Source: Escherichia coli
GTDB lineage: Bacteria > Pseudomonadota > Gammaproteobacteria > Enterobacterales > Enterobacteriaceae
DNA length: 52,139 nt
Reading direction: 5' to 3' (one strand)
Assembly (NCBI RefSeq): GCF_003334405.1
Contig: NZ_QOWM01000022.1
The stretch's first letter is position 1; each line of letters starts with the position of its first letter. Of the stretch, positions 46,501 through 50,936 are shown piece by piece. A program made the position numbers.

Positions 46501-49500
46501 CGGTGCGCGCCTGCGTGTACCCGGAGGCAAAGGGACGCGACTCGCAGATTCATCGCATGCCTCACGTATAATTGTGAAAGCCTCTTCTTCACTATATGAA
46601 TCTGACTCCCAGCGTAGCACTGCCCATACATCGTCCTCACGACGCCGCATTATAAGAATGCCATGCTTTCCGCTGTGACAATTACGTGTCAGTGCACAGA
46701 CTGTGACATGATCATGACTACCCCAAGCGCTAACTGGAGGATCATCCCCAAATCCCAGACCTCGGGGAAGCGATAAGGCATATACATCGAATACACAAGA
46801 CGGAATGGGAGTCATCGAAAAGTCTCACTTAATGAGCCTAAAGATAGCGGCAAGCAGACCATAAAAGACCGGTCCATAAGTAGGTACCTTCTGCATTCGT
46901 TAGCGATTTTTTGACTTTGCTAGCAGTCAAACCCAACAATTAACTCTTCAGTAATCTCACTTAAGGAGACTATGCCTTTATATCCAGTTTCAACGTATGG
47001 GACCACCCTATCACTCCATGCCTCTTCTGCTTTCCATGCAGTCCAGGGGATCAATTTATCGAATTTGCTTTCATGAAGAAATAGTATTGAAATTCTATCA
47101 TTAGGCACATGTTTTATAAACTGAGTTGGAAAACATTTATAGGCATGTTCTTCCCAATGCTTAGTCCCATAACATCTGTAGTCAAAAAAGGAAACACAGT
47201 TACGCCGTCTGAAAAAACCATTTGATGAGTTTCCAAATCTTGACATCTGCAATAATTCCGAGTTTGGGATCAAAGCGCCGGACTGTTTTATGAGAGACAT
47301 ATTATTTTCAGGCGTAACATGGAACACTCTTCCTAAAAGAGCAGGTAATATATCATTGTGAGATATGATTTTGAGTTGACTGACTTTCATATATCTTGAC
47401 CATCGAAATATGGATTAGTGCAATACGTTAACATAGCATAATGTCACTAGCGTCTCCTATTGGCACATAGCAGTCCTAGAGACACTGGCGTAAAGCCATG
47501 GAGGATCGGTGGGAGGAGGCGCTAATCCTTTCATACAAAAAATATGTAAAATCAATAACGGCTGTAAATCATTCAATACTCGCCCTATCGGAAGTTCACC
47601 AGCCAACCGCAGCACGTTCTTGCATACGACGTGGCTGCGGTTTCAACTCCCGCCAGCTCCACCAATCATGATTGGACGGTGTAAGGACAACACCAACAAA
47701 AACAGGAAGTTAGCAGTCTCAGCAGGACACCGACCAGACGGTGAGGAGACAAAAAAGGATACGCAAAGGAGCCGCGGCTCTCGAGTGACACAAAAGCCCG
47801 CTTATGCGGGCTTTTTGTTTTTCCCTTAAGTTCCTAGCCGCTTATCTATAACTATGGAAAAATGTTAACCCTGACTGTATGTTAACAAAGGGATGTATAT
47901 GTCGGTTTTTCATAACTGGCTGCTTGATATCGCAAGCGGGAATTACTTTATCTACATCAAACGCCTTTCTGCAAACGACACAGGCGCAACAGGTGGCCAT
48001 CAGGTCGGACTTTATATCCCCTCAAATATCGTTGAAAAGCTTTTTCCATCTATCAATCATACTCGCGAACTGAACCCTTCAGTCTTCCTTACTGCGCATG
48101 TATCATCCCATGATTGCCCTGATACCCAAGCACGCGCAATTTATTACAACAACCGTTATTTTGGTAAGACCCGAAACGAAAAAAGAATTACGCGCTGGGG
48201 GAGAGGAAGTCCATTACAGAACCCTGAAAATACAGGAGCCCTCACAATTCTTGCTTTCAGGTTAAACGAACAGAACACTGACTGTTCCGAGGTAGATATA
48301 TGGGTCTGCGTCAATCCCGATGAAGAGGATATCATCGAGTCTGCTATTGGCGAAATCATACCTGGAACCCTAATTTCCGGCCCTGCCGGACAAATTTTGG
48401 GCGGATTGTCTCTTCAGCAAACTCCAGTAAATCATAAATATGTTATTCCTGAAGACTGGAAGAAGCGTTTTCCTTCTGGAAACGAAATTATTCAATATGC
48501 TGCTGGCCATTATGCTAAAAACTCCAAGGATCCAGATGAGCAACTGATTGACCGTCGGCGTGTCGAGTATGATATTTTTCTACTCGTCGAGGAATTACAT
48601 GTTCTTGATATTATTAAGAAAGGATTCGATTCTGTAGATGAGTTTATTGCATTAGCCAACTCTGTCAGTAATCGACGTAAATCAAGGGCAGGCAAATCAC
48701 TTGAACTTCACCTAGAGAAGCTTTTTATCGAGCACGGACTACGGCATTTCTCCACTCAGGCAGTTACTGAAGGTAATAAAAAACCAGATTTCCTGTTTCC
48801 TTCAGCAGAGGCATATCATAACGTTGAATTTCCTGTAGAAAACTTACGTATGCTGGCAGTAAAGACCACCTGCAAAGATCGCTGGCGTCAGATACTGAAT
48901 GAAGCAGATAAAATCCATCAGGTACATTTATTTACACTGCAAGAAGGTGTTTCTTCAGCACAATACCGAGAAATGAAAGATGCGGGTGTCAGACTCGTTG
49001 TACCATCAACTTTACATAAAAAATACCCAGAAGCAGTTAGAGAAGAATTAATAACGCTCGGAGCATTCATTACTGAGCTGATAGAGCTTTACGCTGAACT
49101 ATCATAGGCTGACTCCCGGCTTAAAAGGCCGGGAGATGTTCTCAAGGCTGCCCAGTCTTACCAGCATCAGCAGAAACAGCTTTGAGGATATAGGGTTCCA
49201 GAAGTCTGGCAACAGCTTCAAATACTGGCACCACAACTGAGTTACCGAACTGCCGATATGACTGAGTATCTGAAACCGGAATACGGAATGGTTTCCCTCC
49301 AGGTTTTTCAAATCCCATAAGGCGTGCGCACTCTCGGGGAGTCAGCCTGCGTGGTCGACGAGCCTGATTACTCTCATTCATAAAGTCAGCCTCTCCCGTT
49401 GCCATATCCCAACCACGATCAATAAGAATTTCTGATCCGTCTTTGTGATATCTGGCAGAAAGTGTGCGTGCAATGCTTTCCTTATTCTCAGGATTGACCA

Positions 49501-50936
49501 ACCCAAAGCCAAAACCATTCCCCTTGGCTGCATGCTTTTTGGCGTAGTTATAAAGGTACTCCCATAGTTTTGGCGTAAGTATATATTTACTGTCGACTAC
49601 AGGCTCCAGCAATTCACCAAATGATGGGCGGTGTTCCGGATAAAAACGACTGATATCACGCAAGGTAAACCCCTTGTGAATATTCAGATCTCGTCTAAAT
49701 CCGACCAGAACAATGCGTTCACGATGCTGAGGCAAAAAATGCTTCCCATCGATAATCTTTGGATCGTTTTTTCCCATTTCTGCAGCATCGGCAACTTCGT
49801 AGCCCAGCTCGTCAAGGGTCTCCATAATGACTTTGAAAGTTTTACCCTTATCATGGCTCTTCAGATTTTTGACATTTTCCAGCACAAAAATTGCCGGTTT
49901 TTTTGCTCGTATAATACGTGCCACGTCAAAAAAAAGTGTTCCTTGTGCTTCACATTCAAAACCATGCGCACGACCAAGTGAGTTTTTCTTACTAACACCA
50001 GCAAGGCTAAATGGCTGGCACGGGAACCCCGCAAGAAGCACATCATGATCCGGCACATGCTCATCAATATATGCATAAGCATCCGTTTCCAATACATCGG
50101 TTTTATCACTCAGCGTGACTTCCCGAATATCGAGATTGAATTTATGCACCTGTTCATCGTTAAACCAGTTGGCCTTGTATGTACGCACAGCATCTTTATT
50201 CCATTCACTGGTAAAAACACACTGGCCTCCAATGGCCTCAAAACCTTTCCGTATCCCTCCAATTCCAGCAAATAAGTCAATGAAGCGGAAAGCATATTCC
50301 GGATGGTTTGCAGGTGGTTCTGGTAGCATCTTACGCAGAAGAGACTCTTCTACTGAAGTCAACGATTTTGGTAAACACTTGCCATTAATCCAGCGGTTAA
50401 TGGTTTCACGGCTCCACTCATTTTTTCCGACTTTTCTCAGTAATTCAGCCACATACTTCTGATCATAGATTTCCAGCACTTTCTCGATAAGCTTTTTATC
50501 ATTTTCCTGTCGCAGCTTTTCTTCCGCCTCGGCTTCCTTCAGCAGATGCTGTGCCAACACTTCAAATTCAGACATAATTCCTCCAAGGGGTCTAATGGGT
50601 GAAACTTTATCACTCATTCAACCCAGAAGGAAATGTTTTATCTGGATATTTAAACAGTGACTACAACGTAATCTAGCACTGGTGATGCTTTGTTAGGCAT
50701 AGAGAATCATTCTATATACGACTAATGACAGAAAAACAGCAGACAAGTAGTTTGTTCATAAATTAACGCATACTATGTGTCTACGGTTTTCGAGACCGGT
50801 CCAATCATCAAACGAAACATAAAATTAGCTCACATTATGAGGAAAAGTATCTTTTTTGTACTATGTAAATTCAAAGGCTTAGCCTCATTTCTCCGATGGT
50901 TTTCTCAACACTACTGGTTGTGAGCCCTTGCAATGA

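Follow-up and report, generated by a model that had tools for sequence, protein, structure and literature searches.

Conjugative plasmids, IncN among them (N3/R46 type), carry EcoRII restriction-modification (R-M) systems, which consist of a 404-aa endonuclease, represented by the structure PDB 1NA6, and a 477-aa methylase. In the plasmid pairs of pACN001-A, pEL-ars1 and pPAG04, the two genes are convergent and are separated by a gap of 33-34 bp that contains a hairpin. The methylase has a chromosomal relative in Dcm, a member of the same subfamily (PRK10458), which in E. coli is an orphan enzyme with an overlapping vsr gene and no endonuclease partner. On the endonuclease side, the base-flipping enzymes PspGI, Ecl18kI and SsoII (CCWGG/CCNGG) share the fold family of the catalytic core with the C-terminal domain of EcoRII (PMC2770665), but are devoid of its N-terminal effector domain. 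No description of the chromosomal EcoRII allele considered here was found in the literature on EcoRII in connection with prophage, ssrA or thrW, and a methylome paper on ST131 names EcoRII in passing only.

The window considered here, a stretch of 52,139 nucleotides of E. coli DNA, contains such a pair. An ecoRIIR-like gene on the plus strand (47893/47899-49107) encodes a protein of 404 aa, or of 402 aa if translation starts, as in RefSeq, at the ATG at 47899, and an ecoRIIM-like gene on the minus strand (49142-50575) encodes a C5-cytosine methyltransferase of 477 aa. The ORF coordinates place the genes convergently, in the order found in the plasmid system, with 34 bp (49108-49141) between the two stop codons. 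We put the probability at about 0.9 that the two genes form an intact Type IIE R-M system of the EcoRII family, specific for CCWGG and carried as accessory cargo on the E. coli chromosome, where a lambdoid prophage remnant in the thrW-yagP hotspot has its tail-fibre end. The identity, integrity, conserved residues, organization, distribution and genomic context of the pair are established, and it belongs to a known kind of system: the pair is already annotated in RefSeq and constitutes an ordinary copy of EcoRII and its methylase. A first-pass annotation had described the locus as an EcoRII-like pair of convergent genes with an R partner of 402-404 aa, a description that the comparisons below bear out.

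The endonuclease aligns with 1NA6 over residues 1-403 without a gap (E=3e-243) and has the two-domain architecture of EcoRII, consisting of an N-terminal B3-like effector domain (EcoRII-N, PF09217, residues 18-165, E=5.5e-61) and a C-terminal catalytic domain (EcoRII-C, PF09019, residues 229-393, E=4e-71). It is also matched by the PADLOC model REase_II (E=1.9e-234), while NCBIfam has no model for this gene. The protein is 87.1% identical to the plasmid endonuclease, with 53 substitutions in 404 positions relative to the prototype. The residues for catalysis and for reading CCWGG, as listed for EcoRII in PMC2770665, are all retained. The four catalytic residues E271, D299, K324 and E337 are at identical positions, as are the recognition residues N260, K328, D329 and R330, the flipped-base pocket R222, E225, Y226 and F229, and the 13 effector contacts N28, H36, Q37, Y41, R81, Y85, K92, T93, R94, E96, R98, T100 and R101. 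Thus, 21 of 21 CCWGG-reading residues and, with the catalytic ones, 25 of 25 published functional residues agree with the prototype, and the ORF is full length. The protein is a true EcoRII orthologue and not an enzyme of the PspGI/Ecl18kI/SsoII type, a group with which its similarity is remote (E about 1e-4).

The methylase is 91.1% identical to plasmid M.EcoRII (42 of 474 aligned positions differ) and 68.6% identical to K-12 Dcm, and it scores 927 bits against the NCBIfam model PRK10458 for the Dcm/EcoRII subfamily (NF007772; cut-off 710), in line with its earlier placement closest to M.EcoRII/Dcm. Pfam identifies DNA_methylase (PF00145, E=8.7e-78) and the N-terminal domain DNA_meth_N (PF18284, E=4.6e-26), which Dcm also possesses. 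The C5-methyltransferase motifs previously claimed for this protein are indeed present (FAGIG 102, PCQPFS 185, ENV 233, QHRER 283, TPRE 412 and GNSV 444) and include motifs I (FxGxG), IV (PCQ), VI (ENV), VIII (QxRxR) and X (GN(S/A)V). Between motifs VIII and IX, the variable, target-recognition region is near-identical to that of M.EcoRII and close even to that of Dcm. Together with the overall identity of 91%, this suggests that the enzyme methylates the inner C of CCWGG, a specificity that it would share with Dcm. Translation is assigned to begin at the ATG at 50575, which lies 5 nt downstream of a GGAGG and yields 477 aa; an in-frame ATG at 50617 (ORF 49142..50617) was rejected as the start because indels shift it out of frame in two of four alleles.

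Homology to the plasmid pACN001-A is confined to positions 47831-50657, which delimit a cassette of 2.83 kb. Plasmid and window alleles share about 80% nucleotide identity, along with the conserved M leader/operator region. The left edge, at which the pACN001-A homology begins, is formed by the R 5' region (47831..47892, plus strand), where a block conserved in four alleles, CTGGCTG..TATAA.TATGAAAAAATG, precedes R; this region presumably comprises the R promoter and ribosome-binding site. The right edge is formed by the leader of the methylase gene (50576..50657, minus strand), with its promoter and putative operator, and the plasmid-allele homology stops at 50657. Across four alleles, about 85 nt of this leader hardly vary, and they include the inverted repeats CCAGA-N15-TCTGG and GTGATA-N3-TTTCAC. 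Som and Friedman reportedly mapped the operator of M.EcoRII in 1994. The conservation of the leader and the known repression by M.EcoRII of its own promoter (reviewed in PMC12707154) make it probable that the leader holds an operator.

The first-pass annotation had placed the pair in a prophage arm at a tRNA-Thr site. Its chromosomal location, confirmed by the setting and by related genomes, its carriage as prophage cargo and its position in the thrW hotspot all stand, but the tRNA gene does not: ARAGORN found no full tRNA or tmRNA gene in the whole window, and thrW is represented by a fragment of its 3' 46 nt (45047-45092, minus strand), the distal att repeat of the hotspot, whose sequence agrees fully with that part of thrW in one related locus (L002). 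The fragment marks the island boundary beside a yagP remnant. An Rfam search of the window at gathering and E-value thresholds returned only IS009 and sub-threshold sRNA-like matches, and the thrW and ssrA pieces were detected solely by comparison with related genomes. Comparison with strain Ecol_AZ146 revealed that 47637..47664 (plus strand) repeats the final 28 nt of ssrA (tmRNA), an att-type remnant; from 47637 on, the window is 99.7% identical to Ecol_AZ146 DNA that starts within the 3' end of an intact ssrA. The segment directly before the R-M cassette (47665..47825, plus strand) is ~91% identical to the DNA that follows ssrA in most E. coli, and a terminator scan called a terminator in it at 47792-47825.

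On the prophage side of the cargo lies a remnant of a lambdoid tail-fibre assembly gene (51825..52067, minus strand; annotated by RefSeq in the related locus L001), which matches tfa of lambda-like phages and overlaps the Rfam IS009 match, and in three related loci (L001, L006 and L007) intact tail genes follow directly. The pair is located between the thrW att fragment and lambdoid tail-fibre genes, in the position that defines accessory (moron / b-region) cargo of a lambdoid prophage, with tail-fibre genes on one side and the attachment site on the other, and the surrounding prophage is degraded in the genome nearest to the window. Among 50,697 phage records the cassette is absent and the tfa fragment alone matches; because no sequenced free phage among them contains the cassette, its description as phage cargo refers to the prophage context only. 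Judged from these sequence comparisons, the arm is better described as derived from an ssrA-adjacent prophage end that now lies within the thrW hotspot.

Among 5426 complete E. coli genomes, 263 records contain this pair at an identity of at least 99%, nearly always on the chromosome, which amounts to roughly 1 in 20 strains; chromosomal carriage is thus not the unusual feature that had been implied. The allele occupies 268 chromosomal places. In 129 genomes it stands directly after an intact ssrA and in 112 it has the arrangement of the window, in the prophage hotspot between thrW and yagP, near lambdoid tail-fibre genes; the two sites are thus about equally occupied, whereas the plasmid-borne EcoRII systems reside on conjugative plasmids. 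A 2725-bp query spanning both genes is 100% identical in 30 of 30 genomes among the matches listed, and the pair is covered to at least 80% in 399 of the 413 records with a match. R is truncated in some genomes, as in strain 203740, where it is annotated with the N-terminal domain only and an IS66 element is nearby. Of three 'plasmid' matches at 99.5% identity, the one inspected proved to be a 30-kb non-mobilisable record that holds paoC and paoD and, hence, resembles a piece of chromosome more than a genuine plasmid.

A tblastn search of the whole window with K-12 Vsr produced nothing (best E 5.7), in agreement with the earlier remark that no vsr gene is adjacent. No vsr overlaps the 3' end of the methylase gene, as it would in a dcm-vsr operon; the convergent R gene follows instead. 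This is not the anomaly that the first-pass annotation had implied, because vsr is not annotated beside three plasmid EcoRII-type pairs (L004, L008 and L009), tblastn found none within 6 kb of the first of these, and dcm-vsr is kept elsewhere. The genome nearest to the window, PSJ-23, has an intact dcm-vsr at the usual locus, as do 5359 of 5426 E. coli genomes (98.8%). Records with the EcoRII allele, among those listed, have two methyltransferase places each.

The expression, activity and specificity of the window pair are predicted, and the steps of its mechanism are modelled on the EcoRII prototype. The methylase would modify C5 of the inner cytosine in CCWGG and, through its N-terminal domain, would repress its own promoter. 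The endonuclease is expected to be a dimer. Its N-terminal B3-like effector domains would first have to engage extra unmethylated CCWGG sites; only then would the C-terminal PD-(D/E)XK core flip out the central W pair and cut, so that DNA with few or methylated CCWGG sites would be spared. Because the host Dcm has the same specificity and is accompanied by Vsr, the cassette methylase would be redundant for self-protection, T:G mismatches arising from 5mC deamination may be repaired in trans by host Vsr, and a cell that loses the cassette should survive. Consistent with this, Dcm neutralises post-segregational killing by EcoRII (PMC3874152). The pair plausibly serves to restrict incoming DNA without Dcm-type methylation, alongside the neighbouring PD-T4-3 and PD-T7-1-like genes. 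A carrier strain would probably restrict such DNA and have CCWGG methylation from two sources, which bears on cloning, conjugation or phage work with these strains.

Because a cassette that is non-addictive under a resident Dcm would experience little selection to retain R, the pair might be a decaying or silent passenger, in which R is unexpressed or inactive and the methylase alone matters, as a second Dcm. The truncated R of at least one genome indicates that R is dispensable and could be silent elsewhere, and the degraded prophage around the pair in the nearest genome points in the same direction. However, neither ORF of the pair in the window is shortened and none of the published functional residues is lost, and the complete identity among the listed matches and the coverage of the pair in most matching records also argue against decay, so that we regard a silent passenger as unlikely. 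Drift to another specificity, such as CCNGG or CCSGG as in the SsoII, Ecl18kI and PspGI group, might be suspected from the 53 substitutions in R (87% identity) and 42 in M (91%), given that Ecl18kI, a distant relative of the catalytic domain, recognises CCNGG. This is very improbable in view of the near-identity to M.EcoRII, and closeness to Dcm, of the region between motifs VIII and IX, and of the fact that Ecl18kI and PspGI match R at E about 1e-4 only; an EcoRII isoschizomer is the favoured reading.

The main role of the pair might also be addiction instead of defence, with post-segregational killing as the means by which it stabilises the prophage arm. EcoRII does kill in this way in dcm-minus hosts (PMC3874152), and the pair lies at the margin of a prophage remnant prone to deletion. 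Yet the carrier genomes keep Dcm, which was shown to abolish EcoRII killing (PMC3874152), and the neighbours are anti-phage systems. Furthermore, the flanks still change around the pair: its left neighbours vary between genomes and PD-T4-3 is absent from one related locus (L007), which implies that the pair does not prevent flanking turnover. We therefore consider addiction as its main function quite unlikely, and favour an intact restriction system.

The neighbouring genes bear on a more tentative proposal. Divergent from M is a gene for the GIY-YIG type IV nuclease PD-T4-3/CMoRE (50982..51755, plus strand; PADLOC PD-T4-3 E=7.6e-140, PDB 9U75 E=5e-171), an enzyme specific for hmC/ghmC DNA (PMC12923530). 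On the other side, a candidate defence gene resembles PD-T7-1 and PD-T7-5 (45397..46815, minus strand; PADLOC E=2.8e-69 and E=2.6e-35, respectively); Pfam has no match for this 472-aa product or for a neighbouring ORF of 156 aa. Four of five related loci have the R-M pair linked to PD-T4-3. Together with the PD-T7-1-like gene, the EcoRII pair and PD-T4-3/CMoRE might conceivably form a co-selected cassette that senses the state of cytosine at the att-proximal end of lambdoid prophages. EcoRII would then cut unmodified CCWGG, CMoRE would cut the hmC/ghmC DNA that escapes, and 5mC would signify self to both; the ssrA fragment before R might be a trace left when the R-M/PD-T4-3 block was transferred to the thrW hotspot from the ssrA site. 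We hold this reading to be doubtful; the evidence for it extends to linkage and two-site occupancy, not to synergy or co-selection. What wider interest the locus has lies in the juxtaposition of a classical Type II system and a modification-dependent nuclease within a single prophage slot, and in the presence of the block at two chromosomal sites; both agree with well-established ideas on prophage defence hotspots, and there is otherwise little beyond bookkeeping.

Finally, the hairpin reported earlier in the 34-bp gap between the stop codons was confirmed as an 8-bp perfect GC-rich inverted repeat, CTCCCGGC/GCCGGGAG, at 49113-49135 (no strand assigned), which can be extended to 10 pairs. Its fold is not exceptional relative to shuffled sequences (z about -1.5), and the hairpin has no U-tract and was not called by the consensus terminator scan. 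The plasmid pairs have the same hairpin in their gap. Its stem is retained in four alleles of ~80% identity: 30 of 32 cells are paired, and one change, from C-G to A-U, is compensatory; no significant covariation was detected, four sequences being too few for this. The hairpin likely acts as a barrier in both directions or stabilises the 3' ends of the convergent transcripts.

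The convergent pair at 47899-50575 is an EcoRII-type restriction-modification system that was correctly identified in the first-pass annotation, is already catalogued and common, and has supposed oddities that are normal. The endonuclease (R) gene is a 404-aa plus-strand frame (47893..49107) in both the ORF list and the raw sequence; a second in-frame ATG at 47899, better spaced from the preceding AAAGGG and adopted by RefSeq, gives 402 aa. Its product aligns without gaps to the EcoRII structure (PDB 1NA6; E=3e-243) and contains the Pfam domains EcoRII-N and EcoRII-C, and the R gene of plasmid pACN001-A is 87.1% identical to it. 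Residue roles were taken from EcoRII-DNA crystal structures in four groups (PMC2770665): the catalytic residues E271, D299, K324 and E337, the half-site readers N260, K328, D329 and R330, the flipped-base pocket R222, E225, Y226 and F229, and all 13 of the 13 effector-domain contacts are unchanged, so that 25/25 functional residues are kept.

The methyltransferase (M) gene occupies the minus strand (49142..50617), with a likely start at ATG 50575 (477 aa; GGAGG 5 nt upstream). The ATG at 50617 was rejected as the start: small indels break the frame in 2/4 alleles, namely the window copy and three plasmid copies about 80% identical to it, and the 50575-50617 stretch is therefore conserved as DNA, not protein. 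The M product scores 927 bits against the Dcm/EcoRII NCBIfam subfamily model (curated cut-off 710), and has methylase and DNA_meth_N domains with the canonical motifs. Its identity is 91.1% with plasmid M.EcoRII and 68.6% with K-12 Dcm, bearing out its earlier placement closest to these two enzymes. The variable region is almost the same as that of M.EcoRII and close to that of Dcm, and an altered specificity of the pair is the less likely reading.

We infer mechanism, expression, activity and specificity from the prototype: M would methylate the inner C of CCWGG and repress its own promoter, and R would cut via its catalytic core after the effector domains bind extra unmethylated sites, the target being incoming DNA without Dcm-type methylation. 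M.EcoRII represses its own expression via its N-terminal domain (PMC12707154). The leader of about 85 bp ahead of M, nearly invariant across the four alleles, carries inverted repeats, in keeping with this autorepression, and includes a putative operator. A hairpin in the gap between the genes had also been noted, and it is present: 34 bp separate the two stop codons, and the inverted repeat CTCCCGGC...GCCGGGAG (49113-49135, either strand) folds to an 8-10-bp GC-rich stem. Its fold energy is ordinary against shuffles (z about -1.5), and as it has no U-tract, the terminator scan did not call it. The stem is kept in the three plasmid alleles, with 30/32 cells paired across the four, and the Pantoea copy has a single double change, from C-G to A-U; in n=4 sequences, this conservation is suggestive only.

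The claim that no vsr is linked stands as an observation, since tblastn detected no Vsr in the window (best E 5.7), but its oddity does not. The EcoRII-type pairs on plasmids pACN001-A, pEL-ars1 and pPAG04 have no vsr annotated next to them, and for L004, one of these, tblastn found none within 6 kb; the vsr partnership is that of orphan dcm, not of EcoRII. In PSJ-23, the genome nearest to the window (a 99.9% match over the window's final 25 kb), dcm-vsr is intact at the normal locus between yedJ and yedA. Both dcm and vsr also occur in 5359/5426 E. coli genomes, and records carrying the window allele have a second methyltransferase place. Vsr therefore comes in trans, and the specificity of the cassette methylase would duplicate that of Dcm. 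Dcm abolishes EcoRII post-segregational killing (PMC3874152); the pair should be non-addictive in dcm-carrying hosts, with which the truncated R of some genomes is consistent, and an addiction role is less likely. A silent passenger is the less likely account of the pair. In strain 203740 (NZ_CP025913.1; H198 / H68), the annotation of R gives only an EcoRII N-terminal effector-binding domain protein, with an IS66-family element close by, which points to inactivation of R in some carriers.

Homology to the plasmid system is limited to a 2.83-kb cassette (47831-50657), to which some 60 bp in front of R and some 85 bp in front of M belong. A 2725-bp stretch covering both genes recurs at >=99% identity in 263 records among 5426 complete E. 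coli genomes, and the chromosomal places number 268 overall; the annotations there are type II restriction endonuclease (WP_000110239.1) and DNA cytosine methyltransferase (WP_001288444.1). Plasmid-borne copies make up the 80%-identity class, with 642 plasmid records, most of them conjugative. Three 'plasmid' matches reach 99.5%; the one inspected resembles a chromosomal segment because it is a 30-kb non-mobilisable record with paoC and paoD. Besides paoC and paoD, this record, NZ_CP104634.1 (pHNAH212872-4; L005), has the R-M/PD-T4-3 block and the yagP region; it looks like DNA of the chromosomal hotspot, present as an excised circle or through an artefact of assembly.

Core chromosome (ykg, ecp, yagU, paoABCD) makes up most of the window; its last feature is a yagP (LysR) remnant (44582-44920). 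Next to this remnant, an exact copy of the 3' 46 nt of thrW (tRNA-Thr; 45047-45092, minus strand) forms the distal att repeat of the thrW island; the locus is the CP4-6-type thrW hotspot. ARAGORN found no tRNA gene over the window; full thrW is outside it, and related genomes have that gene on the far side of the prophage. PD-T4-3 and a remnant of a tail-fibre assembly gene lie right of the pair, followed in strains 190 and 210221272 by a complete lambdoid tail module. The description of the setting as a prophage arm, and of its site as tRNA-Thr, is thus right in substance, although only the thrW 3' fragment is within the window.

Immediately upstream of R are the last 28 nt of ssrA (tmRNA) with its downstream flank and terminator (47637-47825; flank and terminator 47665-47825), the flank being ordinary post-ssrA DNA in most E. 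coli. From 47637 to its end, the window is 99.7% identical to Ecol_AZ146 DNA that starts inside an intact ssrA, in its final 28 nt, and continues through flank, terminator, R, M and PD-T4-3 to tail fibres; the thrW-hotspot copy therefore holds an ssrA-site fossil. Intact ssrA directly precedes R in 129 genomes, and the window's left junction occurs in 112. The arm probably moved between the two prophage sites by recombination, putatively from ssrA to thrW. The literature search found no description of the chromosomal allele or of the two sites that it occupies, which is a description gap, not a new kind of system.

The neighbours place the pair in a small defence cluster. PD-T4-3 (50982-51755, plus strand; PADLOC E=7.6e-140; PDB 9U75 E=5e-171) is divergent from M, occurs in 4/5 related loci examined (missing from L007) and was lately described under the name CMoRE as a GIY-YIG nuclease of type IV that is specific for hmC/ghmC DNA (PMC12923530); beside a C5-methylase, such a nuclease must ignore 5mC. 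A minus-strand 472-aa ORF (45397-46815; 341 aa in RefSeq) resembles PD-T7-1/PD-T7-5 in PADLOC, and a 156-aa minus-strand ORF (46920-47390) has no match in PADLOC or Pfam. This left-neighbour slot (45397-47390) holds different genes in the related loci L001, L005 and L007.

A hairpin-containing repeat, AACCGCAGCACG...CGTG.CTGCGGTTT, is present in three copies: left of the ssrA fragment (47543-47643), in the core-genome ecpE-ykgJ intergenic region (37988-38077), and after PD-T4-3 (51776-51813), where it looks like the terminator of that gene. Two of the copies are direct repeats of about 39 bp on either side of the R-M/PD-T4-3 block. Rfam IS009 has two full-length minus-strand matches (38491-38690 and 51868-52066; 202 and 229 bits); because the second sits inside the tail-fibre assembly remnant, what this 'sRNA' family matches may simply be a conserved stretch within lambdoid tfa genes.
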